Below are positions 1,381 through 40,499 of a DNA stretch of 64,000 nt, piece by piece. The notes beneath the pieces were generated by a model. It was not told the origin of the DNA and did not search any database. It saw nothing but the letters and a program-made list of their open reading frames with translations. This stretch comes from Bacillota bacterium (GTDB taxonomy: Bacteria; Bacillota; Clostridia; Acetivibrionales; Acetivibrionaceae). Location of the stretch: the NCBI GenBank assembly GCA_049325575.1, contig JBMOLK010000188.1, positions 2,758 to 66,757 of the forward strand, in the 5' to 3' direction. The translations under genes were made by a program, and so were the position numbers. Numbering within the stretch: the first letter of the stretch is position 1; the number at the start of each line of letters is the position of its first letter.

Positions 1381-1440
1381 AATATTTTTATAAAGTATTG
1401 ACATATTTTTCATGATGCTTTAAAATAATAACATACTAAA

Positions 1441-1600: not shown

Positions 1601-1612
1601 TAATAAAGGAGA

Positions 1613-1843: not shown

Positions 1844-1860
1844 TAAAGGAGGGAAAAAGC

Positions 1861-2580: not shown

Positions 2581-2658
2581 ATATGACCTTGATAAAAAGG
2601 ATTACATCCAGTTTGCTAGGAGGTATTCCGCTTACTTAAGTTTAAGGAGGAAGCAAAT

Positions 2659-3540: not shown

Positions 3541-3541
3541 T

Positions 3542-5338
3542 ATGGAAACCAGAGAACAGATGAACATTGTAATCGTTGGACATGTAGATCACGGTAAAAG
3601 TACTGTCATAGGGAGGCTCCTTGCAGATACCGGCTCTCTTCCCGAGGGTAAGCTTGAATCTGTAAAGAACTACTGTAAAAAGAACTCAAGGCCCTTTGAA
3701 TATGCATTTCTATTGGATGCCTTAAAGGATGAGCAGGCCCAAGGGATTACCATTGATACTGCAAGATGCTTTTTTAAGACGAAAAAACGGGATTACATTA
3801 TTATTGATGCGCCAGGACATATAGAGTTTCTAAAGAACATGGTTACTGGTGCGTCAAGGGCGGAGGCTGCACTTTTGGTCATAGATGCCAAGGAAGGGAT
3901 CAGGGAGAATTCAAAAAGACATGGACATATAGTTTCCATGCTGGGTATCAAGCAGGTGGTTGTGCTTGTTAACAAAATGGACCTGATAGATTTCGACAGG
4001 GAAGTATTTAACAACATCAGTACCGAGTTTACGGCGTTTTTGAACAAGATAAATATCAAGCCCATAAGCTTTATACCCATTAGTGCTTTTAATGGGGACA
4101 ATATTGCGGATAGATCGCCCAATACCTTGTGGTATGATGGACCTACGGTGTTGGAGCAGGTGGATGGTTTTATCAACAGGAAAGAAAATCAGGAGCTTCC
4201 ATTCCGCATGCCTGTACAGGATATCTACAAGTTTACTGAAGAAGGTGATGACAGACGAATTGTAGCAGGTACGGTTTTAAGCGGTACAATCAACACCGGT
4301 GACGAGGTTGTTTTCTTACCTTCCAAAAAGAGAAGTACTGTTAACAGTATTGAAGGATTTAATGTGAAACCAAGAGACACCGCATATGCAGATGAAGCAA
4401 TAGGGGTGACGCTTAAAACCCAAATCTACATTAAACCTGGAGAACTGATGGTTAAAGCCAGTGAAAAACTGCCTGTGGTGAGCTCTCGTTTCAGGGTAAA
4501 TATATTCTGGGTAGGCAAGGCACCCCTTATAAAAAATAAAAACTATAAGCTAAAAATCGGAACAATGAGAATACCGGTAAAGCTTGTTGAAATATTAAAC
4601 ATTATTGATGCTGCGGAGCTTAATATTGATACATTTAAGGACCAGGTAGAGAGGCATGATGTAGCAGAGATTATTTTAGAAACTGCAAAGCCTATAGCCT
4701 TCGATCCGGTTTCCGATATTGAACTGACCGGAAGGTTTGTAATAGTGGATAACTATGAAATATCAGGGGGCGGAATTATATTAGAGGGCGTATCCGATAC
4801 CGACAATACACTGGTAGAACACATAAAGGACAGAGAGTTCCTATGGGAAAAAGGTCTGGTATCATCTGCGCAAAGAGAAGAGGCTTATGGCCATAAGCCT
4901 AAATTTATAGTAATTACATCAGGCAGCGAGGGGAATGAAAAAGCTGTACAGGATATAGGAAAAGAATTGGAAGACAGACTTTTTAAAATGAAATACAAGG
5001 CATACTACCTTGGGGTTTCAAGCTTCCTTCATGGCCTAGCCGCAGACGCGGGTTCCAGTTATGAGGGAAGGGACGAACATATAAGGCAGATTGGAGAACT
5101 GGCAAGGATATTTACCGATTCGGGACAGATTTTCATAACTTCCATATTCAATCTGGATGATTATGAAGCAGGAAAGCTCAAACTTCTGAACCAACCAAAT
5201 GACATATTGGTTGTAAATGTCGGTGAAACACCCTTTGACAGTTTTAAGCCTGATGCAAGTATAAAGATAGATGGGGCTGTGGATGAAGTTTGTGATCTAT
5301 TGAAAAAACATGACATAATACTTGAATATTACCTGTAG
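3542..5338 (+). CDS. cysN: sulfate adenylyltransferase subunit 1 (GTPase) with C-terminal APS-kinase-like domain lacking a canonical P-loop
   Basis: [10 protein letters not shown]1 motif and EF-Tu-like domains. The last ~170 aa resemble CysC, but the P-loop position reads [10 protein letters not shown] instead of GLSGSGKST. Confidence 0.85.
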
Positions 5339-13036: not shown

Positions 13037-14644
13037 GTGTATATGGATATAGTACCAAAGCAGATAGATAGAATAGGTACAAGCAACAACGGAGCATTTT
13101 GTTTTGACGATTGTATTGCAACATACGCGGGATACATTGGACGAAGCTATGAAATGATGTATGGCAACTGCTGGAGCTTTAGTCTAATTCCAGGACGGAT
13201 GAATGATACAACTTCTTTGGTAGAAATAATGAATACTGATAGAAATGAAAGCTATAGATTACTTGAAAAGCTTCATGGTATTAAATTGAAGAGAGAGAAG
13301 CTTTTAGAGAGTAGTAAAGCAAAAAGCTATATATTAGAGGAGTTGGAAGCCGGAAGGCCTACGGTATTTATAACAGATGCTTTCTGGTGTCCCTGGGACC
13401 CTGTGTTTCAGAAATACCATAATATTCACGCTTTCCTGATAGTCGGCTTTGACGAAACAAATAATAGTTTTATTTGTGTAGACAGCTATTTCCTAAAGTG
13501 CAATTCAGTCCTGCCGATGGAGTGCTTTATTAATGGCTATAAAGGCATATACTCCTTTGAAGCATTACCTGAACCTGTCGTTATAAATTATGAGGAAGTA
13601 ATAAGAGATCATGCGAAAAGTTTACTTTCAGGATGCAGTGGGGAAAATCATTTTGAGTTGATGCGTAGTTTTGGCAGTGAATTAATGAATATAGACATAA
13701 AAAGGCAGCTTGAAGACAGCGGTGAGTTTTGGTTATGCCCTATATTCCAGGTATTCAATTATATAATTTCTACCCGGGTTTTATATGCAAACGCTTTAAA
13801 ATACATTGCTGATAAATCCAATATCAAATATGTGGCTGAAATTTTGGAGTCTTTCCTTCTGGTTATTGAAAAATGGAATGTGGCTAAGGGAATGCTTATT
13901 AAATCCTTTAGCCTAAATAACACGCATACCGAAGTAGTGAGGAAGCTTAGCGATACAATAATTGAGCTGGCCAAAGAAGAGGAAGGGCTTGCTTTGGATA
14001 TAACTAAAGCAAATATTGACCAACTGAATATCAAAGCATCTATAAAGGATAATAAAGTAAGCAGGCAAGATATAATAAATTATTCATGTAACGATTATGT
14101 TTTTATTGACCTGTCCGGCTATTTAAACAATAAAGGCTTTGATACATATCCTCCTAAAAGCCCTATGTCCGACTTTACAAGTTATGGACACTATTTCATT
14201 AGAGAGGAAGATTTTATAAGAGATACATGGAATGTTGGAGATATGTTGTTTAAAGTACACATAGACCCTAACGAAACATATGACAATGTATCATGCATGG
14301 GGCAGGAGATATCAGTTCCAGAGGGTTATTATGGAAGGATTCGGATTATGGGGTGTTCGGAATATGGAAGCTACACGGATAAAGTTGGTATATACACAAC
14401 AGGTGGAAATGTATATAGCATTCCCATAACGTTTTATGAGTGGTGTGATAATTCAAACAAGGATATCCTGGCATGGAAGGGAAGAATTGCTCACAAAAAA
14501 GAAAACGAAGTATTGATCATTGATCAGGAACACAAGATCTATGCAAAAGAGTTTGTACTAAGCTATAACGAGAAGATAAACAAAATTAAACTACCGGAGT
14601 GTCCCAATTTGCATTTGTTTGCAATATCAATGCTTAAGTCTTAG
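13037..14644 (+). CDS. hypothetical protein, possibly BtrH-N/papain-like (GAFCFDDC Cys motif)
   Basis: 535-aa ORF with strong coding periodicity and no confident family assignment. Confidence 0.3.
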   Translation: MYMDIVPKQIDRIGTSNNGAFCFDDCIATYAGYIGRSYEMMYGNCWSFSLIPGRMNDTTSLVEIMNTDRNESYRLLEKLHGIKLKREKLLESSKAKSYILEELEAGRPTVFITDAFWCPWDPVFQKYHNIHAFLIVGFDETNNSFICVDSYFLKCNSVLPMECFINGYKGIYSFEALPEPVVINYEEVIRDHAKSLLSGCSGENHFELMRSFGSELMNIDIKRQLEDSGEFWLCPIFQVFNYIISTRVLYANALKYIADKSNIKYVAEILESFLLVIEKWNVAKGMLIKSFSLNNTHTEVVRKLSDTIIELAKEEEGLALDITKANIDQLNIKASIKDNKVSRQDIINYSCNDYVFIDLSGYLNNKGFDTYPPKSPMSDFTSYGHYFIREEDFIRDTWNVGDMLFKVHIDPNETYDNVSCMGQEISVPEGYYGRIRIMGCSEYGSYTDKVGIYTTGGNVYSIPITFYEWCDNSNKDILAWKGRIAHKKENEVLIIDQEHKIYAKEFVLSYNEKINKIKLPECPNLHLFAISMLKS

Positions 14645-14653
14645 CGGATTTGC

Positions 14654-17600
14654 ATGGTGTTTAGGGGGGAGAATATGAGTAATGTTGGTATGGAAAATAA
14701 GGTTAAGCTTTATCCACTAACCCATCCTCAAAAGAGAATATGGTATGGGGAAGTGCTTAATAAAGATACTTCCCTTTACAATATCGGAGGACCTGTAAGA
14801 ATAAGGGGATATGTAGATTTTGGTACTCTGCAGCAATCCATAAACATTTTTATAAAAAAGAATGATAGCTTAAGGATGCGGTTTAATGAACAAAACGGTG
14901 AAATAAAGCAGTATATTAGTGAATTCAAAGAGACTAAAATAGATTTTTTTGATTTCAGTACATGCAAAAATCCTGAAGATGAGTTTAACAAGTGGATAGA
15001 ATACGAAGCCGGTAAGAGATTTGACTTAAAAGAAGATTATTTATATTATTTTGCAATGTTTAAAAATGGCGAGTACGATTCCGGATACTTTGTTAAATTT
15101 CATCACTTGATAGCCGATGGCTGGTCAATGCAGATTTTGACAAGCCAGATTTGTGATATTTACATGAAACTTTTACATGGCTCCAGGATAGATGAAGAGG
15201 TTGAATATTCGTATTTAGAATATATTGATAGGGAGCAGAAGTACTTATTATCCGATAAGTTCATTAAAAACAGGAATTTTTGGAAACAAAAATTTCAAAC
15301 ATTGGATGAGGTGTATTTTGGTAAATCTTCTGAAAGCATCAAAGGGAATAGAAAGACTTTCAGGATGGATAAGGATAAATCCCTGAAGATAAAAAACTTC
15401 TCAAAAGAAAATAAATGCTCCTTGAACACACTGTTTGTTTCCTTATATTTAATCTATTTGTATAAGACAACACAACATCAAGATTTGATTATTGGAGTCC
15501 CTGTACTAAATAGATCAGGAAAAAGAGAAAAAAGCATATTTGGGATGTTTACAAGTACAATGCCTTTTAGAATGTATATAAAAGGCTCAATGACGGCAGC
15601 AGAATTTATAAACCATGTAAACAGCGAATTGATGGAATGCTATTTCAATCAGAAATATCCCTATGATCTTTTGGTGCAGGATATTGAGCTTAAGAAAAAG
15701 GGCTATAATGAGTTGTTTAATGTATGCATTAATTATTATAATACCAGGCTTAATACCGAATTTAACGGTGCTTTAACAGAAAATACGGAGTTTTATAATG
15801 GGAATCAGCTTTATTCGATGCAGATTGTTATTAAAGAATGGGAAGACTTAGGAGAAATAAACCTGGACTTTGATTATAAGTCAGGTGATTTTAGTGAAGA
15901 ACAGATCGAAAATATGTACATGTATTTAAGTAACCTGATTGATCAGATTACAGCAGATTCAATGGCTGTTATCGGATCGTTAAGGCTGCTTCCCGACTCT
16001 TCCAGGAACAGACTCATTTATGAGTTTAATTCAACATGTGTAGATTACCCGAAAAACAATACAATATTCCAGCTGTTTGAGGAGCAGGTTTGCAGGACAC
16101 CTGATAAGACTGCGGTAAGCTTTAATGGGAAAAGCATTACTTATAGAAAGCTTAACAAAAAAGCAAACCAACTTGCCAGACTGTTAAGATACAAAGGTAT
16201 TGGAAGAAATACTGCTGTAGGATTTATGACAACCCACTCAATAGAAACTGTTATAGGAATCCTGGGTGTTATAAAAGCAGGGGGTGCTTATGTGCCTATC
16301 GATCCCTGCTATCCTATGGAAAGAATAAACTATATCCTTGAAGATTCCAAGGTATCAGTTCTGCTTGCCAATTGTAGTCTGGATGGCGGTTTGGATTATA
16401 AGGTGGATATTATTGATCTTAGGGATGAAACCATATATAAAGGTGAAGCAAGTAATCCTGATTTAATAAATGAAATGAATGACCTGGTTTATATTATTTA
16501 TACTTCAGGTTCTACAGGAAAGCCTAAAGGCACAATGATAGAGCACAGGGGGCTTGTTAACTATATATGGTGGGCAAAAAAGATGTATGTAAGACATGAG
16601 GATGATGTTTTTGCGCTTTATTCTTCTTTATCCTTCGATCTTACAGTAACCTCGGTTTTTACACCACTTATAAGCGGGAATAAAATCATGGTTTATGCAG
16701 ATGACGGCGAAGAGTTTGTTCTTTACAGGATACTTGGAGATAATCAAACTACTGTTCTAAAGCTAACACCGGCACATTTATCATTGATTAAGGATTTGGA
16801 TAATAGTAATTCATCAGTTAAAAGGCTTATCGTTGGAGGAGAAGACCTAAAGGTTGTTCTTGCGAAGAGTATCTATGACAGCTTCGGAGGAGACATAGAA
16901 ATATTTAATGAGTATGGCCCTACAGAGACAGTGGTTGGCTGTATGATCCACAAGTATGATGTTGAAAAAGATACTGAACAATCAGTGCCTGTTGGTATAC
17001 CTGCTGATAATGTGCAGATCTATATTCTTGATAAAAATCTTGAGCCTGTACCTTTAGGAGTAAGCGGAGAAATTTACATTTCGGGAGATGGTGTAGCAAG
17101 AGGTTATCTGAATAGACCGGAGTTAACAGCTCAAAAGTTCATTGACAATCCATTTATTAAAGATAAGAGAATGTATAAGACAGGTGATATTGCCAGACAC
17201 CTGCCTAACGGTATAATTGAGTATTCAGGCAGGGCAGACTTTCAGGTTAAGATAAGAGGTTACCGTATCGAATTGGGTGAGATAGAGAATCAGATATTAA
17301 AAATAAAAGGTGTTGATGATGTTGTAGTTATAGACAGGGAAGACTCTTTAGGCAGCAAATACCTGTGTTCATATATTGTTTCAAAGGTACAAATGCCGTT
17401 AACAGAGATAAGGCAGTATTTGTCAGGTGTTTTACCTGATTATATGATCCCATCAAGGTTTGTATCCTTAGATAGAATTCCCCTTACAACCAACGGGAAA
17501 GTAAACAGACAGCTTTTACCCGAACCTTTGGAGGAAAATATTGATGAATCTGACTGTGTTTGCTTTAATAATAAAACAGAAGAAAAGATTATAAAAACTA

Positions 17601-19189
17601 TCAAGGAAGTGCTTAATGTTGCCAGGATAAACAGGAGAGATAATTTCTACCGGCTTGGCGGCGATTCAATTAAGGCAATTCAAATTGCAGCAAGGCTAAA
17701 CGAACTTGGCCTTAAGATAAGAGTAAAGGATATTCTATCTAAAAATGTAATTGAAAAAATCATGGCATGTGTTGAGACTGACACTGCATTTGAAGCTTTG
17801 GAAAACAAAGCCTTAGAAGGAGAAATCGGAATAACGCCAATTGTATCATGGTTTTTTGAGCAGCATTTTAAAAACCCCAATTATTATAATCAATCGGTAT
17901 TACTTTCCCTAAATACAAATGTTGGACTTGACAATATGGAGCAGGCAATAAATATATTAATCAGACATCATGATGCCCTAAGAATAAATTACAGCAGCCA
18001 GAAGGGTATTTTATATTATAACAATGACTATCTAAATGAACATCAGAAACTGCAGATATTTGACCTATCTTTCGTTCCCTTAGATGAACAGAAGGTAAAA
18101 ATGAGACAAATCTGTGAAGAGATAAAATCATCCCTGGATATTGAAAAGGGGATTTTATTCAAGGCTTGTGCGTTAGAGCTTGGTCATTACGGCAGGAGGC
18201 TTCTTTTAACAGGGCATCACCTGATTGTGGATGGTGTATCCTGGAGAATTCTGCTTGAGGACCTTGCCAGGGTTTTAGGTTCTCTGGAGAAGAATATTGA
18301 GTTGTCTCTGCCTCAAAAGTCAAGCTCACTCAAGGAATGGGCTTCACAGCTTTTAAAGCTTGGTCAGGGCAGCCTTAAACAAGAAAGAGAATATTGGAAT
18401 AACGTTATAAGCAGTAGTTTCAGTTTTCCGGTTGATTTTGATCTCGGCCATGACAATATAGAAAACTGTAACGTGAAAAGGTTTGTAATTGATGCTGATG
18501 ATACTGAAAATCTGTTAACCACAGCAAATGCTCCTTATGGTACAAATCCTAACGATCTGCTCCTTACTGCTTTGGTTGCAGCTATTAGGAAGATGTATGC
18601 TGCTGATGAGGTTGTAATAGAGCTGGAGGGACATGGAAGAGAAGACCTGTTTGACAGGTTGGATGTTACAAGGACTGTTGGCTGGTTTACAAGTATCTTT
18701 CCTGTAAAGCTTAAAGCTGTTGGTTCGGATTTAGGATCACAAATCAAGTCTATCAAAGAGCAGCTAAGGAGAGTTCCCAATAAAGGGATTGGGTTTGGTG
18801 TTTTGAAGTACATGTCAAAATTAGTTCCAGTCTGCGATAAAAGGTATGCAAGATTTAATTACCTTGGGGAGTTTGACAATAGTCAGGATGAAAATATTTA
18901 TAAAATATCACTTGAAGACTCGGGTCCTGACTCGGCTAAATCCAACCACTTGACATGTTTATTAGATATAAATGCATTGGTTTTAGACAAAAATTTAAAT
19001 ATATCAATAACTTACAGCAGAAACAAATACCTGGACGAAACGGTTGAAAAACTTATGAAGGAATACAAAAATTCACTGGCAAGTGTAATAAAACATTGCT
19101 TAGGCAAAAGACACTCTGTTGATTTTACACCATCAGATTTTGAAACATTAAATATCTCACAGGATGAACTTGACCAACTTTTTATATAG
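14654..19189 (+). CDS. NRPS module C(starter)-A-T-E with asparagine-type specificity code; ClbN-like prodrug-motif loader
   Basis: HHLIADGWS (C); YTSGSTGKPKG, NEYGPTE, YKTGD, GRADFQVKIRGYRIELGEIE (A); LGGDSIKAIQ (T); ITPIVSWFFEQ and HHLIVDGVSW (E). The hand-aligned Stachelhaus positions give D-L-T-K-I-G-E-V-G-(K). Confidence 0.9.
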   Translation: MVFRGENMSNVGMENKVKLYPLTHPQKRIWYGEVLNKDTSLYNIGGPVRIRGYVDFGTLQQSINIFIKKNDSLRMRFNEQNGEIKQYISEFKETKIDFFDFSTCKNPEDEFNKWIEYEAGKRFDLKEDYLYYFAMFKNGEYDSGYFVKFHHLIADGWSMQILTSQICDIYMKLLHGSRIDEEVEYSYLEYIDREQKYLLSDKFIKNRNFWKQKFQTLDEVYFGKSSESIKGNRKTFRMDKDKSLKIKNFSKENKCSLNTLFVSLYLIYLYKTTQHQDLIIGVPVLNRSGKREKSIFGMFTSTMPFRMYIKGSMTAAEFINHVNSELMECYFNQKYPYDLLVQDIELKKKGYNELFNVCINYYNTRLNTEFNGALTENTEFYNGNQLYSMQIVIKEWEDLGEINLDFDYKSGDFSEEQIENMYMYLSNLIDQITADSMAVIGSLRLLPDSSRNRLIYEFNSTCVDYPKNNTIFQLFEEQVCRTPDKTAVSFNGKSITYRKLNKKANQLARLLRYKGIGRNTAVGFMTTHSIETVIGILGVIKAGGAYVPIDPCYPMERINYILEDSKVSVLLANCSLDGGLDYKVDIIDLRDETIYKGEASNPDLINEMNDLVYIIYTSGSTGKPKGTMIEHRGLVNYIWWAKKMYVRHEDDVFALYSSLSFDLTVTSVFTPLISGNKIMVYADDGEEFVLYRILGDNQTTVLKLTPAHLSLIKDLDNSNSSVKRLIVGGEDLKVVLAKSIYDSFGGDIEIFNEYGPTETVVGCMIHKYDVEKDTEQSVPVGIPADNVQIYILDKNLEPVPLGVSGEIYISGDGVARGYLNRPELTAQKFIDNPFIKDKRMYKTGDIARHLPNGIIEYSGRADFQVKIRGYRIELGEIENQILKIKGVDDVVVIDREDSLGSKYLCSYIVSKVQMPLTEIRQYLSGVLPDYMIPSRFVSLDRIPLTTNGKVNRQLLPEPLEENIDESDCVCFNNKTEEKIIKTIKEVLNVARINRRDNFYRLGGDSIKAIQIAARLNELGLKIRVKDILSKNVIEKIMACVETDTAFEALENKALEGEIGITPIVSWFFEQHFKNPNYYNQSVLLSLNTNVGLDNMEQAINILIRHHDALRINYSSQKGILYYNNDYLNEHQKLQIFDLSFVPLDEQKVKMRQICEEIKSSLDIEKGILFKACALELGHYGRRLLLTGHHLIVDGVSWRILLEDLARVLGSLEKNIELSLPQKSSSLKEWASQLLKLGQGSLKQEREYWNNVISSSFSFPVDFDLGHDNIENCNVKRFVIDADDTENLLTTANAPYGTNPNDLLLTALVAAIRKMYAADEVVIELEGHGREDLFDRLDVTRTVGWFTSIFPVKLKAVGSDLGSQIKSIKEQLRRVPNKGIGFGVLKYMSKLVPVCDKRYARFNYLGEFDNSQDENIYKISLEDSGPDSAKSNHLTCLLDINALVLDKNLNISITYSRNKYLDETVEKLMKEYKNSLASVIKHCLGKRHSVDFTPSDFETLNISQDELDQLFI

Positions 19190-19231
19190 CAGAATTCAGG
19201 TACTTTAATATTAAATTGTGAGGGCTTAACT

Positions 19232-30600: not shown

Positions 30601-32498
30601 GCAAAATTCTGATTTTTGCTGATGAAAAGGGGATGGCCGATAATCTTGCATCAAAGCTTAAAACTGCACAAACCGAAGTTGCTATGGTGAATTTCGGCTG
30701 TGAGTATTTTAAGATCAGTGATGAAAAATATATTATATCTTCTAAGGAAAGGGATTACAAACGATTATTTAGTGAAATTGACCTTAAAGATATTGCTCAC
30801 ATTATTCACATGTCCAGTATATTGGGGAATTCAGAAATAAAAGATGTTAATGAGCTTGAAAGAAGCCAGGATATGGGAGTGAGAAGCCTTTTTCATATTG
30901 TTAGGGAGCTGCTCGGTATTGGCACAACAAACAAAGTGAATGTGTATCTTATTTCCCAATATGCCAACAGGGTAACTGGAAAGGAAAAAAGGATAAATCC
31001 TGAAAATGCAACACTATTTGGACTGGGCAAAGTCATTGAGCAGGAGTATCCAAACCTTAGCTTAAGATGTATAGATATAGATTTGGAAACTTCCATAAAT
31101 GAAATTTTTAAAGAAATATCAGCTTATTTGCCATCCAACCTGGTTGCCTACCGCGCTGGAAAGCGATATGTTGAAGAATTTAGAAGGCTTGAGATCGGTC
31201 AGATTTTAAGGCAGGACGTTTCCATAAAAGACAATGGTGTTTATTTGATTACCGGAGGATTAGGCGGCATAGGGCTTGAAACAGGAAAGTATATTGCGTC
31301 CAAGAATAGGGCAAATATCGCATTAATAAGCCGGTCAGAGCTTCCACCAGGTGAAGAGTGGGAAAAGATTCTAAGAGACGGTACTGACAGTATGTTGTGT
31401 CACAAAATAAAGGCCATTAAAGAAATTGAAGGCATGGGGTCAAGGGTAACATGTATTAGTGCTGATGTATCAAATGAAGAAGAAATTGCAGCTGCCGTTA
31501 ATGGATTGCGCCAAGTTTACGGAAGAATAAGGGGTGTAATACATAGTGCAGGGCTGGCGGGAGACGGGTTTATAATCAAAAAGAATCAAGAAGAATTTGA
31601 TAAGGTACTGTCCCCAAAGGTTAGAGGTACATGGCTTTTGGATATGTTAACCAGGCAGGATAAACCTGATTTCTTCATTATGTTTTCTTCAAATAATACT
31701 TTAATGGGTGTACCGGGGCAGGGGGATTATACAGCGGCAAACAGCTACCTGTGTGCATTTTCCGACTATAGGAATATAAGAGGTGAGAGAACACTGGCTA
31801 TAAACTGGCCTGCATGGAAGGAAACAGGTATGGCAGTTAACCATGGTGTCAACTTTGACAGTATTTTTAAGGCTATGCCTACAAAGCAGGCTCTAGATGC
31901 TTTCGATTTAGCCATAGGTCTTAATGTGAACAGGGTTATAATCGGTGAATTGAATGTTGGCGGTTCTATACACGGTAAAACAATATATGATGCAAAGATT
32001 AGTTTGTCAGAGCAAATAAAATCAAGGATAGACAGGAAAAACGAAAGTACCCCTGTAAAGAAGGGACTTAACGAAAAGGTTAAAGATATAAAGGTGGCAC
32101 TTAAAGGTAAAAAAACTGGAGACTTTACGGAGGAAGAAAAAATAATGGCAGGAATATGGAAGGAGGTTCTTGGATTTGAAGAGTTTGATATTTATGAAGA
32201 CTTCTTTGATATAGGAGGAGACTCTATACTGATAACAAAGGTACAGGCTTTGGCAGAGGAACGATTTCCCGGAAGAATTTCAGTTTCAGATCTTTTTTCT
32301 TACAGGACTATTTCAGATTTGGCTAAGCATTTATCAAAAGAACAGGATAAGCTTAAAGAGCAGCATTATATAGATATAAAGCCTATGTCATCCAGCTCTG
32401 ATATGGACAAAGGCATAAACGAACTTCTAGATGCAATACATAAGGGTGATATTGATATTGACAAGGCTGTTGAAAGCTATAAGTCTATGGGGGTATAG
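27681..32498 (+). CDS. trans-AT PKS module KS-(AT-less linker)-DH-KR-ACP
   Basis: DTTCSSSL, EAHGTGTKLGDPIE, SNIGHLD (KS); HxxxGxxxx-type DH motif (HRIMGDCVLVG); ITGGLGGIGL (KR); IGGDSILITK (ACP). No AT domain lies between the KS and the DH. Confidence 0.9.
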   Translation: MLNFENIRLNINKKPAPVELEEISKKDIAIIGAAIKLPMANTLEEYWNNLRNGIDCVRSIPDSRKRDADDILSQMDIDVSTVKYAEAAYLDEIDRFDYSFFKLAPKEACLMDPNQRLFLETAWNAVEDSGYGGTKLVGSRTGVYVGYGSDPDYKRLISSAEPEAASFALTGNVRPIIASRLSYLMDFRGPSLLVDTTCSSSLMAVHLALRGIRNGECELAIAGGVQVHILPVRQTKIGIESSDGRAKTFDDGSDGTGTGEGVIAIVLKSLSKALEDGDNIYAVIKGSAANHDGASIGLTAPNAEAQEDVIVRAWKESGIDPSTISYIEAHGTGTKLGDPIEIDGIQRAFRRFTGRKSFCAVGSVKSNIGHLDNTAGIAGLLKAVLALENKQIPPTLHFKYPNRKINFEESPVYVNNKLSDWNTEGFPRRCGVSAFGLSGTNVHIILEEAPLRSKEEYVTEAALNVFTLSAKSKAVLREMADNYTKFLEKNKGLNIKDICYTANTGRGHYGFRLAVLAKDNYELLERLRELSVSEFDYISNRRIFYGEHKLAPVNKEVLGEGEVTEAVVKETSIAAESKIRDFLSSAKESEDLIVEICKAYVKGAEINWEEFYKGRKYKRISLPSYAFEKKRCWVEAKGSSKRKVDYARDVQWSLLDNQVAESMGVDIYSTSFSVDSHWVLNEHRIMGDCVLVGTAYLEMAIQACHKHFQGVFVEFRDIVFVKPLVVREGEYKDVQTIITSRNGFYEFTVVSNGGFDDLGQVIWVRHVEGKILGCRERDIKAVDVSEIRDRNREGYFIPDIDSYNADSVFEFGPRWKNIREMYIGDGELLSHIKMPDMFTGELMDYVLYPSLMDNAIATMPLLDKLLKNSPFSGENGIFLPFSYKRLRILRSLPAEFYSYVKLKGDISDGSESVTFDIVLLDKSGEAFAEIEEYTLKKAKKNQMPQSKAGTSDIYYEVAWIPQDITVREKDIKKGKILIFADEKGMADNLASKLKTAQTEVAMVNFGCEYFKISDEKYIISSKERDYKRLFSEIDLKDIAHIIHMSSILGNSEIKDVNELERSQDMGVRSLFHIVRELLGIGTTNKVNVYLISQYANRVTGKEKRINPENATLFGLGKVIEQEYPNLSLRCIDIDLETSINEIFKEISAYLPSNLVAYRAGKRYVEEFRRLEIGQILRQDVSIKDNGVYLITGGLGGIGLETGKYIASKNRANIALISRSELPPGEEWEKILRDGTDSMLCHKIKAIKEIEGMGSRVTCISADVSNEEEIAAAVNGLRQVYGRIRGVIHSAGLAGDGFIIKKNQEEFDKVLSPKVRGTWLLDMLTRQDKPDFFIMFSSNNTLMGVPGQGDYTAANSYLCAFSDYRNIRGERTLAINWPAWKETGMAVNHGVNFDSIFKAMPTKQALDAFDLAIGLNVNRVIIGELNVGGSIHGKTIYDAKISLSEQIKSRIDRKNESTPVKKGLNEKVKDIKVALKGKKTGDFTEEEKIMAGIWKEVLGFEEFDIYEDFFDIGGDSILITKVQALAEERFPGRISVSDLFSYRTISDLAKHLSKEQDKLKEQHYIDIKPMSSSSDMDKGINELLDAIHKGDIDIDKAVESYKSMGV

Positions 32499-32502
32499 TT
32501 TG

Positions 32503-34548
32503 ATGGACAAAGTCTATAAAATGTTATTTGAGAATATTACTTCAGGAAAAGTTGACAGGAAAGCAGGGGTGGATATTCTAAAAGCTTTAAAGGAAGAAGA
32601 AAATCACAATACCAGAGATGATATGGCCATTATTGGAATATCTGCAAAGTTCCCTGGTGCGGAGAATATAAGTGAATTCTGGACAAACCTAAGAAGCGGA
32701 GTAAACAGTATTACAGATTTTCCGGAAAACAGACGCCAGGACTCGGATGCTTTTGTACCATTCACATATATGAAGAATGAAGATGTAAAATACTGCAAAG
32801 GTGGATATCTTAAGGAAGTAGACAAGTTCGACCATAGGTTTTTTGGAATTTCACCCAAAGAAGCAAGTCTTATGGATCCAAGTCAAAGAATCTTCCTTGA
32901 AACAGCATGGAATGCCATTGAAGATGGAGGGTACGGAGGCAAAAAACTTATGGGAAGCAGGACGGGCTTGTATATTGGATATTCCGGGTGGCCCATGTAT
33001 GGACAGTTTGTATCCCATGTTGAGCCAGCAGCTTTTGATGTCTCGGTTACAGGAAATATTTCAGCCATTATTTCAAGAAGAATACCTTACCTGATGGATA
33101 TGAGCAGTCCCAGCATGCTTATAGATACTGCATGCTCATCATCCCTTGTAGCACTCCATCTAGCATGCCAGGGCATAAGAAATGGTGATTGTGACCAGGC
33201 ATTGGTGGGAGCAATAAGACTTTTGCTGATGCCAATTGAAGGGATGATTTCATATGGCATTGAATCAAAGGACTATAACTCCAAACCTTTTGACGATAGT
33301 GCAGATGGTACAACCCTTAGCGAAGGCGTGGCTGCTATTTTGATTAAACCTTTAAGGAAAGCAATCAAGGATAGAGATAATGTCTATGCTGTTATAAAAG
33401 GAACTGCCTGCAACCAGGATGGAGGTTCAGTCGGACTTACTGCTCAAAGCGCTGCTGCCCAGGAAAATGTAATTGTTAAGGCCTGGGAGGATTCAGGCAT
33501 AAATCCGGAAACAATTTCATATATCGAAGGTTTCGGGGCTTGTACCAAGCTGGGTGATACCTTGGAAATAGAAGGCATTCAAAGGGCGTTTGGAAGATAT
33601 ACCCATAGAAAACAATTCTGTGGGATAGGATCAGTAAAATCAAATATTGGCCATCTTGATAGCTGTTCAGGACTGGCCGGACTGATAAAGTCGGTTCTTT
33701 CCCTAAAGCATAGGGAGATACCTCCTACTTTGAACTTTAGAAACCCTAATAAATCGATAAATTTTGAACAGTCACCAGTTTACATAAATGATAGATTAAA
33801 AAAATGGGACTCTGATATTGCTAAAAAAAGGTGCGGTATAAGCTCCTTTGGTTTTAGCGGTACAAACGCCCATGTTGTACTTGAAGAGGCAGCAGAGATT
33901 AATGTAGAAAGGAATTTAACAAAAAAACACTTCTTTATATTTGTTCTGTCTGCAAAAAGTAAGGAATCCCTGGAGGAGCTTATAAAAGCATATAAAGATT
34001 ATGTAAGAAATGAGAAAGAGGTAAGACTTCATGATATATGCTATACTTCCAGTACCGGAAGGGGGCATTACAATTACAGGCTGGCATTGATAGCAGAGAG
34101 TGAAGCAGAATTTACAGAGAAGCTGGAAAAACTTGACGCAGCGGAAGTCATTAATAATAGGGAAGATAATGTTTATTTTGGGTGGCATAAAGCTGTACCG
34201 GCTAATAAGGAGTTTAGACAGGACGGGGAATTGACCGAGTCTGAAATAAGAGAATACGGGAAAGCAGCAAACTTGCTGATAGACAAATACAAAAAAGATA
34301 TTTATGGGGAAAAAAGTATATTAGCAGAACTGTGCGGGTTATATGTAAAAGGAGCTGATTTAGATTGGGAGCGACTATACGAGGGTGATAAATACTACAG
34401 GATAAGTTTACCCGTATATCCCTTTGAAAGAAAAAGGTGCTGGATTAATGTAAAGAAAAAGCCTGAAGAATATATAAAACCAGGTACCAAAACAGATAAA
34501 GCCCGTTTAGAGAATGTACTTGATGAAAATATTGATTTTAAGTTTTAG
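32503..34548 (+). CDS. stand-alone non-elongating ketosynthase (KS0) with flanking linker subdomain
   Basis: The active-site Cys is retained (DTACSSSL), but the HGTGT histidine is replaced (IEGFGACTKLGD) and SNIGHLD is present. The probable start is at 32503 (MDKVYK) with a GGGGGTA RBS, not 32431. Confidence 0.75.
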   Translation: MDKVYKMLFENITSGKVDRKAGVDILKALKEEENHNTRDDMAIIGISAKFPGAENISEFWTNLRSGVNSITDFPENRRQDSDAFVPFTYMKNEDVKYCKGGYLKEVDKFDHRFFGISPKEASLMDPSQRIFLETAWNAIEDGGYGGKKLMGSRTGLYIGYSGWPMYGQFVSHVEPAAFDVSVTGNISAIISRRIPYLMDMSSPSMLIDTACSSSLVALHLACQGIRNGDCDQALVGAIRLLLMPIEGMISYGIESKDYNSKPFDDSADGTTLSEGVAAILIKPLRKAIKDRDNVYAVIKGTACNQDGGSVGLTAQSAAAQENVIVKAWEDSGINPETISYIEGFGACTKLGDTLEIEGIQRAFGRYTHRKQFCGIGSVKSNIGHLDSCSGLAGLIKSVLSLKHREIPPTLNFRNPNKSINFEQSPVYINDRLKKWDSDIAKKRCGISSFGFSGTNAHVVLEEAAEINVERNLTKKHFFIFVLSAKSKESLEELIKAYKDYVRNEKEVRLHDICYTSSTGRGHYNYRLALIAESEAEFTEKLEKLDAAEVINNREDNVYFGWHKAVPANKEFRQDGELTESEIREYGKAANLLIDKYKKDIYGEKSILAELCGLYVKGADLDWERLYEGDKYYRISLPVYPFERKRCWINVKKKPEEYIKPGTKTDKARLENVLDENIDFKF

Positions 34549-37500
34549 TGCTGGGGGGATATAATTTGACAAAAACGATTCAACAGTTGTTTGAAGAGCA
34601 GGTAGAAAAAACACCTGATAGTACTGCAGTATGGTATGAGGGTAATAAGCTTACCTTTAGAGACCTAAATGAAAAAGCCAATCAGCTTGCAAGGAAACTG
34701 CGTGAAAAAGGCGCAGGTCCCGATTGTATAACAGGTATTCTCTTTGAAAGGTCTTTGGACATGATAATTGCTATTGTTTCTGTACTAAAGGCTGGTAGTG
34801 CATATATGCCTGTTGCAGTTGATTATCCTGAAAACAGGAAAAAATACATATTGGAAGACAGCGGAGCGAAAATATTGCTGACTCAAAAACACCTTGCAGA
34901 AAGCCTTCCGCTGCTGCCAGGAGTTGATATAATTGCTATTGACGATGATAAAATCTATGGTGGAGATACGTCAAACCTCCAGGAAGGAAACAGCCCCAAG
35001 GATCTTGCATACGTTATATATACATCGGGAACTACAGGAAAGCCAAAAGGAGTTATGATTGAGAATAAAAGCGTTGTAAATCTTGTAAATGGGCTTTTCA
35101 GTCATATTTATAAAAGGTATGATTTCAGTTTAAATATTGCCCTTTTGGCGCCTTATACCTTTGATGCATCAATTAAACAGATCTTTCCATCCCTTCTTCT
35201 AGGGCATACACTATTTATTGTACCCGAGAGCATCCGGCTAGACGGAAAGGAACTTTTGAACTATTTTAACAGGAATTCAATTGACATAGCGGACGGAACT
35301 CCGGCGCATATCGGAATGCTTGCAAGTTATACGCCGCTTCTTAAAGACGAACTTGCGGTAAAGCACTTTGTTATAGGGGGAGAAGCCTTACCAGCAAAAC
35401 TGGTAAAGGAATTTTTAGACTCTATTGAAGAAAGAAAGCCTCTTGTTACAAATGTATATGGCCCTACAGAGTGCTGTGATGTTTCAACACTCTACACCAT
35501 TTATCCAAAAGAAGCTTATAGTAATAATATTATACCTATTGGGTCTCCCATAGAAAATGTAACCGTTTATATACTGGATGAAAATGAAAAAGCGGTAAAG
35601 GAAGGGACTGTGGGAGAATTATATATATCTGGAGAAGGAGTAGGTAGGGGATATTTAAATAAACCCCAGCTGACAAGCGAAAGGTTTATACCTGATCCGT
35701 TTATTAAAGGGAGAACCATGTATAAGACCGGTGATAAGGCAAGAATACTTCCGGACGGGAATATTGAATACCTGGGAAGGAATGACCATCAAGTAAAAGT
35801 TAGGGGCTTTAGAATTGAACCTGCAGAAATTGAATCGGAAATTATGGATTATGAAGCCGTAAAAGAAGCAGTAGTTATAGTAAGAGAAGAATATAGTGGT
35901 GATAAATATTTATGTGCCTACTACATATCCGACAGGGAAATCCAATCACAGGAACTTAAGGAGTTTTTAGCAAAAAGCTTGCCTTATTATATGATTCCGG
36001 CATACTTTATAAGGATGGTGAGCTTACCGCTTACGCACAACGGCAAGGTTGACAGGAATGCACTGCCCGAACCGGATATATGGGCTAACAAGGTTAAGAT
36101 TTATACAGCCCCTAAAAACGACACTGAAGAAAGAATGGCACATATATGGAAAGAAGTATTAGGTATTGGTCGGATTAGTATGGAAGATAACTTCTTTGAT
36201 TTGGGAGGACATTCCCTGAAAGCCAATATACTTGCATTCAAAATACATAAGGAGTTTAATATTGAAATACCTATAGCCGAAATTTTTGCAAATCCTACGG
36301 TCAATGATATGATAAGGTTTATGGAAGGAGCGGCAAGTAGAGATTATAAAAGTATACAACCTGTAGAGCATATGGATTTGTATCCTCTTTCCCTATCACA
36401 GAAATGGATTTTTGTCTCTAGCAGAGTAAACAGGGGAGATATTTTATGGAATATGCCGTGCTTGATGATGATTGATGGTAAACTTGATATAAAGCGTTTT
36501 GAAAATGCCCTGAACATGTTAGTGAAAAGACATGAAGCCTTTAGGACATCTTTTGAGATGACTGAACGGGGGCCGATGCAGAGAATTTATGATAATGTAA
36601 AATTGGATATATCATACATAGAGTCGGATGAAGATCAAATAGAAGGATTATTAAAGGAATTTATAAAACCCTTTGATTTAAACACCGTACCTTTATTAAG
36701 AGCGGGCCTTGCAAGAATATCTGAAGGCAAACATGCATTCTTATTTGATATTCACCATATCATATTTGATGGCTTGTCAGTAAATATCCTGTTGCGGGAA
36801 TTGGAAACTCTGTATGATGGCGGACAGCTGCCTGAATTAAAGATTCATTACAAGGACTTTGCTTACTGGGAAAATGAGCATTACATGTCAGGAGGGTTTA
36901 AAAAACAGGAAGATTACTGGTTGAAAGTTTTTAATGGCAAGATTCCGGAGCTTGATTTACATACGGATTTTCCAGGAAAACAGGAAATCGGCAATGAGGG
37001 TGACAGGGTAGTATTATCTCTAGGAGTTGATCTTACTGCCCATTTAAGAAAGTTTGCCTCAAAAGCAGGCTCATCCATTTACATGGTGTTGTTAGCTGCA
37101 TATAATATCTTGCTGTTTAAATATTCAGATCAGGAAGAAATTGTGGTAGGTACATTAACAGCAGGCAGACAGCATGCTGATCTGGAAAATATAATCGGCA
37201 TGTTTGTTAGGACCCTTGCAATGAAAAACCATCCCAAGCCATACAAAACTGCTGCTGAATTTTTAAGAGAAGTAAGGGATAACTCCTTAGCCGCATTTGA
37301 TAATCAGGAGTATCCGTTAAATCAACTTTTGGATGTACTCAAATTACCAAGAAATCTATCCAATCATCCATTATATAAAGTTATGTTTATAATGCAGAAT
37401 ATGGATAGCCCAAAGTTTAAAACGGATGGCCTTTTATTTAGACAGCATGACATTAATTTAAGGATCTCGGCATGTGATCTTATCCTGGAGGCTAGAGAAA

Positions 37501-37703
37501 ACCAAGAGGGAATAAAGCTAACTATGACTTACAAGACCAGGTTGTTTAAGAAGGAAACAATAGAGACCATGGTTTTAAACTATCTAAAGACATTGGAATT
37601 GTTAATTGTGAATCCGGATATTAAACTGTGTGATTTTGAATTGGAAGGACTACGTAAGGCTCTGGATAATGTTCTTGATGAAGATATTAATTTTAATTTT
37701 TGA
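34548..37703 (+). CDS. NRPS module A-T-C (terminal condensation domain)
   Basis: YTSGTTGKPKG, NVYGPTE, YKTGD (A); LGGHSLKANI (T); HHIIFDGLS (C). A TTG start at 34567 with a GGGGGGAT RBS is plausible. Confidence 0.9.
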   Translation: MLGGYNLTKTIQQLFEEQVEKTPDSTAVWYEGNKLTFRDLNEKANQLARKLREKGAGPDCITGILFERSLDMIIAIVSVLKAGSAYMPVAVDYPENRKKYILEDSGAKILLTQKHLAESLPLLPGVDIIAIDDDKIYGGDTSNLQEGNSPKDLAYVIYTSGTTGKPKGVMIENKSVVNLVNGLFSHIYKRYDFSLNIALLAPYTFDASIKQIFPSLLLGHTLFIVPESIRLDGKELLNYFNRNSIDIADGTPAHIGMLASYTPLLKDELAVKHFVIGGEALPAKLVKEFLDSIEERKPLVTNVYGPTECCDVSTLYTIYPKEAYSNNIIPIGSPIENVTVYILDENEKAVKEGTVGELYISGEGVGRGYLNKPQLTSERFIPDPFIKGRTMYKTGDKARILPDGNIEYLGRNDHQVKVRGFRIEPAEIESEIMDYEAVKEAVVIVREEYSGDKYLCAYYISDREIQSQELKEFLAKSLPYYMIPAYFIRMVSLPLTHNGKVDRNALPEPDIWANKVKIYTAPKNDTEERMAHIWKEVLGIGRISMEDNFFDLGGHSLKANILAFKIHKEFNIEIPIAEIFANPTVNDMIRFMEGAASRDYKSIQPVEHMDLYPLSLSQKWIFVSSRVNRGDILWNMPCLMMIDGKLDIKRFENALNMLVKRHEAFRTSFEMTERGPMQRIYDNVKLDISYIESDEDQIEGLLKEFIKPFDLNTVPLLRAGLARISEGKHAFLFDIHHIIFDGLSVNILLRELETLYDGGQLPELKIHYKDFAYWENEHYMSGGFKKQEDYWLKVFNGKIPELDLHTDFPGKQEIGNEGDRVVLSLGVDLTAHLRKFASKAGSSIYMVLLAAYNILLFKYSDQEEIVVGTLTAGRQHADLENIIGMFVRTLAMKNHPKPYKTAAEFLREVRDNSLAAFDNQEYPLNQLLDVLKLPRNLSNHPLYKVMFIMQNMDSPKFKTDGLLFRQHDINLRISACDLILEARENQEGIKLTMTYKTRLFKKETIETMVLNYLKTLELLIVNPDIKLCDFELEGLRKALDNVLDEDINFNF

Positions 37704-37726: not shown

Positions 37727-38753
37727 ATGGAAATTAAGGATTACACTAAGGAAGACGTAAAGTTCGATAAGGAGAGATCATATTGGCTCAATAAACTCCA
37801 TGGCATGTATACCAAATGATTTCCCGGATAAAGGAGAAAACGGCTATAAAAGTGCTGTTATGAGTTTTTCCTTTGACAAGGAAGTTTATGAAAGGATGAC
37901 AGCAATCAGCAATAAATCTGATTTTGCGCTATTTATTATATTACTTTCGGGGGTTAAATATATTCTGCATGAATACACCCAAAACAGCGATGTATTAACC
38001 ATAATGCCGGTATTTAAACAAAACTCTAAGAATGCTTTGCTTATAAACAGCATTCTTCCGCTCTTAACCAAACTAGATAGGAACAGAACTTTCAAGGAAT
38101 ATTTGAATGAAGTAAAAAATACCGTAGTTGATGCCAACGCCAACCAGAATTTTCCCATAATGAGTCTTATTGACCTCCTGAACGTAGAATTTGATGAAAA
38201 TGGACTCCCAATACTTGGTACGGTAGTTTCGTTAGATTCTGTTCACGATAAGGAATATATTGGAAGCTATAAGGCGGATACCCTCTTTTATTTTTACAAG
38301 GACAATGGGGACTTAAGGGTTGAAGTTGAATATAATTCCAATGCTTATGGCCAAGAAACTATAAGCCAGTTTGTAAAATATTTATTTGAATTTTTTGATG
38401 CTGTACTTAAGGTGCCGGAGAAAAGGTTAATAGATATTGAAATAATTCCAAATGAAGAGAGACAATTGATTAAGGAACGTATTGAGAGAATATGTGATTC
38501 AAAGAATAAACTAAGTTTCATGAACATAGAAGAGATTGAGGAAAAGTTAATAGAAATATGGCAGGATTTATTGGGAGTAGAAAGAGACGAAATAGAAAAT
38601 AATTCATTTTTTGAACTTGGAGGAAACTCCATGCTGGCAATTAAGCTGGAAATCGAAACTTCAAAGAAAGGGATTGTTATGAAATCTTCAGACATTTATA
38701 AATTTCAAACGGTTAAAGAGCTGTCAGCTTATATTGCAAGTAAAAATGAATGA
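37727..38753 (+). pseudogene. relic condensation-domain C-lobe plus PCP, interrupted by a frameshift near 37800-37815
   Basis: The 37727 frame reads MEIKDYTKEDVKFDKERSYWLNKLHG and stops at 37814. The 37800 frame continues with C-lobe-like FALFIILLSGVKYILHEYTQNSDVLTIMPV and FFELGGNSMLAIK (T). Confidence 0.5.
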
Positions 38754-38960
38754 TTTGAGCTGCTTGAAGTGAGGCTTAGGCAGAAATATGTTAAAAACTG
38801 ATTTTCTCAAATTATAACCTAAAGCCAAGAAAGGGTAAGAACATCATATGACTAAAACTATAAGGAAAGTATGGCGGATATATGATAGACAGTAATATAA
38901 AAGGCATGAGAAGAAAAAGGCTTATGATGTTTCTACTGGTTGCCAGTTAGCCCATGGTTG

Positions 38961-38998
38961 AACTTGTTTAAAAAAAAATACAAGTTTTAATTTTTCTG
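38961..38998 (+). terminator. putative terminator after the biosynthetic island
   Basis: AACTTGT-loop-ACAAGTT hairpin followed by TTAATTTTTCTG. Confidence 0.4.
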
Positions 38999-39077
38999 TA
39001 ACCATTTTTAGCCATGTACGATATATAATTACTTTAGATGAGACCTATAGTCTAAAAATTTAAAAGGTGGTGTCAAA

Positions 39078-39413
39078 ATGGAATTAATGCAGATAAGAAA
39101 TTTGGCACAAAAGGTGAAGGAGAATATCAGCCGGTTCATTGTCGGTAAAGATGAAGTAGCCGACTTACTGCAGGTTGTACTGATTTCATCGGGACGTGTA
39201 CTTTTGGAGGATGTGCCCGGAACGGGTAAAACACTGCTCTCCAAAGCAATGGCCAAATCACTTAACACTTCATTTAGAAGGATTCAATTCACTCCAGATC
39301 TTCTTCCTCCAGATCTTCTTCCTCCAGATCTAAGCGGTATCAGTTTTATAACCAAGAGATGGAAAGTTCGAGTTCCGGACGGGTTCGATCTTTTCAAATA
39401 TATGCTGTTTTAA
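39078..39413 (+). pseudogene. truncated MoxR-family AAA+ ATPase fragment with in-frame 15-bp tandem duplication
   Basis: VLLEDVPGTGKTLLSKAMAKSL (Walker A) and RIQFTPDLLP, then PDLLPPDLLPPDL. After this, similarity to MoxR is lost and the ORF ends at 111 aa. Full-length MoxR proteins are ~320 aa. Confidence 0.6.
39294..39331 (+). repeat. tandem direct repeat CCAGATCTTCTTCCT x2.5
   Basis: Exact 15-mer copies at 39294-39308 and 39309-39323, then a partial copy. Confidence 0.9.
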
Positions 39414-39881
39414 ACTAAGTTTTAATGGACTAAGAAAAATGGCCCTACCACAAAAGGCAAAATGAGTATATTATAATAATCAAAATAGAGAACCTATGAA
39501 AGCTATTACTTGTATTTAGACTATAAATCTGCAAACAATGAAGTTAATTCTAGGAGGGTGTAATTTGAATATGTATTTAGCAGCTGTTACTTTAATAATA
39601 ACAGTAATCTATATAACTCAGGTTAAAAGCAACATTACTTTCAGTTATAGCTTAATATCTGAATATATAAAAATAATTTTACTGTTACTCTCATCAATAA
39701 AAATCGCTATTCTTTCTATAAAAACGAAAAACTGGAATTGTATCGCCAAGTGAAGAATATATCCAATGAGACAGCCATAATAAGTCATGCAATAAATAAT
39801 GAGATAGCTTAGGTTTCTATATGCATTGATAATATTGAAAACAATAATTGTAATAATGAAGATATATTCAGGGGGCGAACT

Positions 39882-40499
39882 ATGCATAAAATTAAAGTTA
39901 TGATTATTGACGATGATTTAGATTGGATTGAGACAATGAGGGGTTTCCTAGATAATTATGATGAGATTTCAATTATTGCAACTGCAAACAATAGAACGGA
40001 TGCTGTTGAACTTGTAAAAACTCTTGATATTGACATAGTTCTATTGGATGTAAACTTTAAAGGCAAAAATGAAGGAATGTGTATAGCATCGGATATACAC
40101 AGATTAAAGAACCAAACAAAGATTATAATGCTAACTTGTATGGACCAGGAGGAAATTATTCTAAACTCTTTTTTGATGGGGGTATCAAACTATATCTACA
40201 AAACAAACTATAGACAAGTTCCTTATATAATAAGAGACATGTATAACAATGTTTCGCCAATCGAAATACTTGCAAGAAAGTACTTTAACCAGCAAAAAGA
40301 AAAACAACTTGAAGTGTTAACTCGTACAGAAAAGGAGATCTTTAAACTGATTGAAAGTGGATATACCCAATCACAGATAGCGCGGCTGCAGTTTAAAACA
40401 AAAGGTACTCTTAGGAGTCAAGTCAATAAAATAATAAAGAAGCTAGGTGTTAGAAACAGCAAGGAAGCTGTAAACATTTTTAGACTTGAGAACACTTGA
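39882..40499 (+). CDS. orphan response regulator, receiver + LuxR/FixJ-type HTH
   Basis: MIIDDD...LLDV receiver, and C-terminal LTRTEKEIFKLIESGYTQSQIA...GTLRSQVNKIIKKLGV. Confidence 0.8.
   Translation: MHKIKVMIIDDDLDWIETMRGFLDNYDEISIIATANNRTDAVELVKTLDIDIVLLDVNFKGKNEGMCIASDIHRLKNQTKIIMLTCMDQEEIILNSFLMGVSNYIYKTNYRQVPYIIRDMYNNVSPIEILARKYFNQQKEKQLEVLTRTEKEIFKLIESGYTQSQIARLQFKTKGTLRSQVNKIIKKLGVRNSKEAVNIFRLENT

Follow-up and report, generated by a model that had tools for sequence, protein, structure and literature searches.

Genes and features of the locus

The window analysed here is a stretch of 64,000 nucleotides from a Bacillota bacterium (assembly GCA_049325575.1, contig JBMOLK010000188.1, positions 2,758 to 66,757). 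Annotation of open reading frames (ORFs) and Pfam domains places a hybrid polyketide synthase (PKS)/nonribosomal peptide synthetase (NRPS) cluster on its forward strand at about 13.0-38.8 kb. This work concerns three consecutive genes near the 3' edge of that cluster, which encode a stand-alone ketosynthase (KS), an NRPS subunit with adenylation, thiolation and condensation domains (A-T-C), and a subunit, 'C-T, that joins half a condensation domain to a carrier protein. The KS and the A-T-C subunit end in closely similar short tails. The features of these genes, together with the preceding PKS subunit, are as follows.

27681-32498, forward strand: PKS subunit with KS, dehydratase (DH), ketoreductase (KR) and acyl carrier protein (ACP) domains, KS-DH-KR-ACP (ORF 27681)
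32503-34548, forward strand: stand-alone KS of 681 aa, consisting of an N-terminal helical docking region, the KS, a flanking subdomain/linker and the tail
33124-33144, forward strand: DTACSSS, in which the active-site Cys211 is kept
33520-33558, forward strand: YIEGFGACTKLGD, with Phe344 at the HGTGT histidine site, aligned by BLASTP without gaps opposite YIEAHGTGTKLGD of the ORF 27681 KS
33637-33654, forward strand: KSNIGH, in which the second catalytic histidine, His384, is kept
34501-34545, forward strand: C-terminal tail of the stand-alone KS, ARLENVLDENIDFKF, ending ...LENVLDENIDFKF
34548-37703, forward strand: NRPS subunit A-T-C (Pfam AMP-binding at 15-370, PP-binding, Condensation)
37659-37700, forward strand: C-terminal tail of the A-T-C subunit, ALDNVLDEDINFNF, ending ...LDNVLDEDINFNF
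37727-38753, forward strand, frameshifted: 'C-T subunit, a half condensation domain plus a carrier protein

The Condensation match of the A-T-C subunit spans profile positions 3-442 of 456, that is, a full-length C domain, and contains HHIIFDG at 36753-36773. The stop codon of the KS gene overlaps the GTG start of the A-T-C gene (34546-34566); an independent gene call (L008) starts the latter at TTG 34566, after a GGGGGG run.

The stand-alone ketosynthase

The KS is 100% identical to an NCBI-called protein (P0001) from a Bacillota metagenome-assembled genome. It matches PF00109 (3.2e-68) and PF02801 (1.3e-37) as well as the KAsynt_C_assoc and CurL-like linker models, and Pfam finds no ACP or acyltransferase (AT) domain in it. 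BLASTP identity to the elongating KS of ORF 27681 is 49%.

The first-pass annotation had called this protein a non-elongating ketosynthase (KS0) because it keeps the active-site cysteine and has lost the decarboxylation histidine, and the alignment bears this out in each part. Cys211 lies in DTACSSS, Phe344 occupies the HGTGT histidine position without a gap, His384 is present, and the same alignment holds no shifted histidine able to rescue the motif. The HGTGT-position histidine is found in 106 of the 120 closest KS homologue clusters. Eight clusters lack it, with phenylalanine in two and methionine in six, and all eight are stand-alone proteins of 634-681 aa with the same C-terminal tail. 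Loss of the histidine among the relatives is thus confined to tail-bearing stand-alone proteins, of which three more (P0003, P0013 and P0021) retain it. A kept cysteine together with a lost HGTGT histidine is the accepted sequence mark of a KS0 (PMC4661987), and the window KS shows both. On its sequence, the call of a non-elongating ketosynthase in a trans-AT PKS/NRPS hybrid line is sound.

At the other end of the protein, the C-terminus of ORF 27681 (..GINELLDAIHKGDIDIDKAVESYKSMGV) and the N-terminus of the KS0 (MDKVYKMLFENITSGKVDRKAGVDILKALK; window 32380-32610) are both helical. They look like a trans-AT docking pair of the four-helix-bundle type at the ACP/KS0 junction. The KS0-type N-terminal pattern recurs on KS subunits downstream of ACP-ending subunits.

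The C-terminal tails and their recurrence

The first-pass annotation also noted that the KS and the next NRPS share an acidic/aromatic tail, and both C-termini do carry it. The two tails match at 8 of 12 residues. Their coding DNA is identical at only 33 of 45 positions, so they are not a fresh duplication. The six frames of the window contain 225 stop-to-stop ORFs of 60 aa or more, and of these only the two genes discussed end in the strict motif.

Beyond the window, [ILVMFA]xFx[FLI]-COOH ends 24 of the 120 KS homologue clusters, where its internal frequency predicts 0.17, a C-terminal enrichment of more than 100-fold. The objection that such a tail occurs at random in unrelated proteins fails on these counts. 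On the KS side the bearers include stand-alone KS, KS-C, KS-half-C and KS-ACP-C proteins. Of 149 large NRPSs retrieved through an unrelated query, 24 have the tail as well. It is kept across proteins only 45-55% identical and across unrelated protein families. The first-pass annotation had pointed to other trans-AT systems as the place to look for it. The tail does recur, but it is not specific to trans-AT lines, being common in pure NRPSs and in radical S-adenosylmethionine (radical-SAM) enzymes.

In proteins encoded upstream of 'C subunits the consensus is (D/E)(D/E)(D/E)-G-D-F-(G/D/E)-F. Phe or Trp at position -3 and Phe at -1 are invariant, Gly, Asp and Glu predominate at -2, and basic residues are not frequent anywhere along the tail in this set. 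The same ..GDF/WxF-COOH ending is found on B12-binding radical-SAM enzymes about 570 aa long. In the following metagenome loci such an enzyme lies between a tailed NRPS and a 'C-first NRPS, which suggests that the tail recruits a tailoring enzyme to the assembly line.

L014, L016, L018-L022, L026, L027, L030, L042, L045 and L047, at about 1-4000: tailed radical-SAM enzyme between a tailed NRPS and a 'C-first NRPS

A cluster-specific tail code was also considered and is unsupported, 30 of 120 permutations reaching the observed likeness within clusters.

Half-condensation domains and their linkage to tails

'C denotes an orphan C-terminal half of a condensation domain, covering Pfam profile positions of about 188-455 and starting ..E(R/K)xYWLxKLSG. 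In related loci, the megasynthase genes downstream of tails have two start types only, a bare A domain or a 'C. The bare-A start is limited to one orthologous A-T-C family (window, L001, L002, L004 and L006). A 'C opens the next megasynthase gene after tails in the window and in L002, L004, L005, L006, L007 and L009 (twice), in architectures that include the following (MT, methyltransferase; R, reductase).

L002: 'C-DH-KR-ACP
L004: 'C-T-C-A-T-C
L005: 'C-A-MT-T-R

Word-indexed homologue searches with the window 'C and with the C-terminus of the C-A-T-X NRPS at 22555-26328 (ORF 22555) returned the query itself or nothing. Of about 149 best representatives in an exhaustive HMMER search with the window 'C, 84 proved to be megasynthetases opening with a leader of about 20 residues and then a 'C. 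Eighty metagenome loci were retrieved with A2, an alignment of 'C-type N-termini, A1 being too diverse for the locus scan. Among the 69 unique proteins encoded immediately upstream of 'C-first subunits, 63 end in [FWY]x[FLIVYW]-COOH (2.2 expected) and 56 in the strict form [DE]..[FW]x[FL]-COOH (0.28 expected). All junctions of the loci surveyed are tallied below by the start of the downstream protein and the tail of the upstream one.

Downstream starts with 'C: strict tail 61, loose tail 7, no tail 7
Downstream starts with KS: strict tail 0, loose tail 0, no tail 17
Downstream starts with full C: strict tail 0, loose tail 0, no tail 5
Downstream starts with A: strict tail 3, loose tail 0, no tail 4
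Downstream other: strict tail 20, loose tail 1, no tail 17

By Pfam, the 20 tailed junctions in the last class fall mostly within triplets of a tailed NRPS, a tailed B12 radical-SAM enzyme and a 'C-NRPS. This layout of two tailed proteins followed by a 'C occurs in at least 13 loci, and the order in the window, tailed KS0, tailed A-T-C and then 'C-T, mirrors it.

The proposal in the first-pass annotation that the tail is a recurring docking motif is supported by this tight link to one N-terminal domain type, by the wide recurrence and by predicted disorder. The tail is genuine and widespread and is probably a portable docking motif, and the half-C that opens the third gene is most likely the receptor of the window tails. 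The linkage is genomic; binding, its geometry and the choice of receptor by the KS0 tail are inferred.

The representative search also turned up a natural fusion. P0211 (1582 aa) joins a full C directly to a half-C with no intervening tail (..NPNIRIREIGLEN-VYPRMVISGAEFENERRY..), and it may offer a covalent mimic of the docked state.

Predicted structures

An AlphaFold2 model of the window C domain with its tail has a mean predicted local distance difference test (pLDDT) score of 86.2 and a predicted TM-score (pTM) of 0.85. The last 15 residues of the A-T-C tail fall below pLDDT 50 and are modelled as coil. In the relative P0006, a natural single chain with both elements, the 'C is predicted at pLDDT 82.8 (pTM 0.83) and the tail below 50; in both models the disordered stretch comprises the last 15-16 residues. 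The tail therefore appears, as modelled, to be a disordered peptide, not packed against the protein that bears it. A Foldseek comparison of a relative's 'C model with the solved TycC PCP-C structure 2jgp gave E 5.6e-20, TMq 0.77 and TMt 0.40, the match covering half of solved C domains. A confident model together with this match points to the 'C as an autonomous fold.

The window 'C-T gene and a second half-C

The window 'C matches Pfam Condensation positions 211-455 of 456, followed by PP-binding only, and it lacks HHxxxDG. The NCBI call for this gene covers only 37800-38753. A 30-codon ORF from 37727 (to 37819; ribosome-binding site GGAGG) encodes the true N-terminus of 'C-T, ..FDKERSYWLNKLHG. 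FDKERSYWLNKLHG and MEIKDYTKEDVKFDKERSYWLNKLHG of this upstream piece match the N-termini of other 'C proteins, so the real start of the 'C gene is 37727. Reading thus runs through 37727-37804 and resumes in the +1 frame from about 37806, with a one-base frameshift near 37805 that is either an assembly error or the mark of a pseudogene.

A divergent second half-C closes ORF 22555, accompanied by a tail-like peptide at the start of the next PKS subunit.

25726-26325, forward strand: divergent half-C at the C-terminus of ORF 22555-26328 (Pfam 29.3 bits, just below cut-off)
27681-27710, forward strand: tail-like N-terminal peptide MLNFENIRLN of the KS-DH-KR-ACP subunit

The last 200 or so residues of ORF 22555, aligned with five relatives, match a C-half profile in hhalign (probability 99.0, E 3.4e-18), and the same six sequences give no match to the N-half of the C domain. 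An M-(L/V/I)-x-F-x-x-(I/V/L)-x-L start is present on 7 of 7 KS subunits that follow C-A-T-'C proteins. The remaining KS subunits of the loci all lack it and begin with helical docking sequences. The C-terminal half-C and the N-terminal tail-like peptide may form a mirror-image docking pair at the NRPS-to-KS junction.

The remainder of the cluster

The other genes of the cluster are as follows.

13037-14644: free-standing BtrH_N/C39-like protein
14654-19189: NRPS containing C-A-T and a further C-like domain, two condensation-family domains in all, with a COM-like C-terminus, TPSDF..LDQLFI
19232-22387: beta-lactamase-fold peptidase fused to an ABC transporter, in a ClbP-like prodrug layout
22555-26328, forward strand: C-A-T-X NRPS, where X is the divergent half-C
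26344-27621, forward strand: discrete acyltransferase (Pfam Acyl_transf_1)

The discrete acyltransferase sets a trans-AT context; by Pfam, the PKS proteins of the window have no AT domain, and the KS proteins carry linker domains only. The layout across 14654-22387 resembles the ClbN/ClbP arrangement with which colibactin-like and zwittermicin-like pathways activate an N-acyl-D-Asn prodrug. The BtrH_N domain, free-standing here, is fused as KS-ACP-BtrH_N in many KS relatives, for example edeine EdeG (P0097). No MbtH-like motif was found in the window, and no thioesterase or reductase release domain follows 'C-T within 38754-39900. At 39078-39413 there is a broken MoxR-like AAA fragment that contains a repeated PDLLPPDLLPPDL stretch. 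The 3' edge of the cluster looks truncated next to L004, whose homologous gene encodes 'C-T-C-A-T-C (2229 aa).

A proposed docking mechanism and its alternatives

The reading we favour, with somewhat better than even confidence, is that the tails are portable C-terminal short linear motifs (SLiMs) that dock on the half-C at the start of the next subunit, so that both the KS0 and the A-T-C protein would dock on 'C-T. Both carry a C-terminal tail of about 15 residues, predicted to be disordered, that is acidic at first and then hydrophobic-x-Phe-x-Phe-COOH. Its last residues would bind the 'C lobe, probably by strand addition with both Phe side chains buried, and would thereby tether the tailed protein to the subunit carrying the acceptor carrier protein. 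In this way the KS0 and the A-T-C protein could be recruited to a single 'C-T hub (37727-38753). The KS0 would accept the chain on its cysteine from the ORF 27681 ACP and hand it on without decarboxylative extension. A broader claim is made more tentatively, at a little under even confidence: the acidic-FxF-COOH tail and the half-C would form a widespread docking system, not known to have been described, in which a dead C-lobe hub recruits the preceding subunit and extras such as an A-T-C protein or a B12 radical-SAM enzyme, and a mirror-image version may serve the NRPS-to-KS junction.

Several observations weigh against this proposal. The first-pass annotation had looked for the partner in the downstream N-termini, and that simple pairing did not hold: the gene right after the KS0 opens with a bare A, likewise in L004, L006, L001 and L002, and the linked partner is the half-C of the third gene. 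Pairing of the KS0 tail with a 'C is consequently indirect. The second half-C, in ORF 22555, could be the real partner of that tail. Tails are no more alike within a cluster than across clusters, so the motif by itself cannot be what specifies the partner. All 80 metagenome loci belong to a single 'C subfamily; they are mutually related rather than phylogenetically independent. In the AlphaFold2 model of P0006, the tail was not placed on its own 'C. Finally, the frameshifted 'C-T gene, the missing release domain and the broken MoxR-like gene are signs of decay, and this copy of the pathway may be decaying.

A first alternative accepts a functional tail and gives it another receptor, such as the half-C of ORF 22555, the trans-AT, the ClbP-like peptidase/ABC transporter (which would tether the line to the membrane), a protease or a chaperone. 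The line does contain that second half-C, the cluster encodes other candidate receptors, and window tails that agree at so many positions could both fit one common receptor. Against this, the link to an N-terminal 'C holds in many clusters with no ClbP/ABC fusion or trans-AT, for example pure NRPS/radical-SAM loci, and no other protein type is common to all the tail-bearing loci examined. We regard this alternative as unlikely.

The tail could instead be the upstream remnant of a C-A linker left by gene fission, docking on, or merely preceding, the next A domain and unrelated to the half-C. The A-T-C protein right after the KS0 starts MLGGYNLTKTIQQLFEEQ, which resembles the second half of a C-A linker (..YPxxxTIxQLFEEQ); relatives show a tailed KS-C protein followed by A-T-C (L001); and the hydrophobic-x-aromatic-x-aromatic pattern recalls the ..ILYDF of canonical linkers, where N.. 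follows. The spacing and the distribution of the tail speak the other way. In 323 of 361 cases the aromatic residue of the C-A linker stands 15 residues past the point where the C-half model ends. The tails end at 20-24 residues, and four tails come after an entire canonical linker helix, 35-43 residues past that point. Stand-alone KS and radical-SAM enzymes, which never had a C-A linker, bear the tail, and upstream proteins are tailed at only 3 of the 7 junctions where the next subunit opens with A, compared with 68 of 75 where it opens with 'C. A fission remnant is accordingly improbable. Its narrower form, in which the tail is a truncated canonical C-A linker, is ruled out by the spacing (15 against 20-43 residues) and by the occurrence on KS and radical-SAM proteins.

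A third alternative, which would place the tail among ordinary SLiMs of the known class that binds a beta-hairpin docking domain (betaHD), is very improbable. The tail is short and disordered, and its hydrophobic residues alternate as they do in the five-residue strand of Kj12B (PMC6195595, PMC9113145). However, Pfam finds no betaHD or TubC_N-type domain in the cluster proteins or in the downstream proteins of related loci. The leader before the half-C has only about 20 residues, and betaHDs are described as far bigger than their SLiMs, with another linker, some 20 residues long, between them and the following domain (PMC9113145). Recognition by betaHDs follows a rule of two salt bridges, whereas the invariants of the tail are two aromatic residues. 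Lastly, the motif is short, but chance or a functionless neutral relic is scarcely credible as the source of the two-tail similarity, given the C-terminal enrichment and the conservation across diverged proteins and unrelated families.

Docking elements set the order of megasynthase subunits and are the main handles for pathway re-wiring. If tails do dock on half-C domains, a portable five-residue tag and a receptor of about 240 residues would make a simple engineering tool. Docking of this kind would explain why many bacterial NRPS subunits open with a seemingly useless half C and how free-standing enzymes (KS0, radical-SAM) reach the assembly line. In genome mining, the tail/'C pair would predict subunit order for non-colinear genes.

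Comparison with known systems

The window 'C aligns to positions 13-222 of NCBIfam TIGR03443, and we take it to be akin to the N-terminal truncated-C ("ADA") domain of the fungal alpha-aminoadipate reductase Lys2. In both, an orphan C-terminal C-half stands at the N-terminus of an NRPS-like protein, and L005 and L009 share the 'C-A-T-R layout with Lys2. The ADA domain is described as supporting the adjacent A domain, and we know of no tail ligand for it. The window 'C differs in that it precedes a carrier protein, with no A domain; a 'C directly before an A domain is found in L005 and L006. The C-terminal subdomain of C domains contacts the A domain (PMC11546977), a contact that explains the 'C-A starts but not the 'C-T or 'C-DH starts.

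As a KS0, the window protein shares with those of other trans-AT lines the KS fold, the kept cysteine, the lost HGTGT histidine, a discrete AT and a position at the PKS-to-NRPS transition. It differs in being free-standing without a carrier protein of its own, in the substitution of the histidine by Phe (Met in six related clusters), and in ending with a docking-type tail rather than being fused to the next domain.

The docking-domain classes listed in a 2021 review are the class 1 and class 2 cis-AT bundles, trans-AT four-helix bundles, DHD, COM, PAX and SLiM/betaHD (PMC9113145). A tail/half-C class is absent from that review, and neither a tail/half-C docking pair nor docking by truncated or half C domains was found described in the literature searched, which did not cover all subscription journals. 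COM elements and trans-AT four-helix bundles resemble the present tails in being terminal elements that order subunits. The tails differ in that they are not helical pairs and are not at epimerization/condensation (E/C) or ACP/KS junctions: they follow a KS or a C, and 0 of 5 full-C-first junctions are tailed upstream. The window appears to use both of these types elsewhere, COM at the end of ORF 14654 and the four-helix bundle at the C-terminus of ORF 27681 and the N-terminus of the KS0.

The dehydratase docking region (DHD) of trans-AT PKSs is likewise a disordered C-terminal KS extension, proposed to contact a catalytic-type domain of the following subunit directly at its surface. DHDs are about 70 residues long and confined to KS/DH junctions and to KSs without a flanking subdomain, whereas the window tail has about 15 residues, its KS keeps the flanking subdomain and its partner is C-like. 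About 31 residues follow the conserved CW of RKRCWINV at the end of the KS linker, and the next proteins start with A and 'C.

In form the tails resemble the SLiM/betaHD pairs (Kj12, TubB/C, EpoA/B and enacyloxin Bamb_5917/5915), in which the upstream ligand is also a very short, intrinsically disordered C-terminal peptide; that of Kj12B is a five-residue strand (PMC6195595). In those pairs too, one receptor can serve several SLiM proteins, at varied junctions that include tailoring enzymes. The ligands differ in chemistry: the window motif is acidic-x-Phe-x-Phe-COOH, with aromatic invariants in place of paired charges in the last five residues, and betaHDs use a salt-bridge code. On the strength of its genomic linkage, the system of the window would thus represent SLiM-type docking with a different receptor, the half-C.

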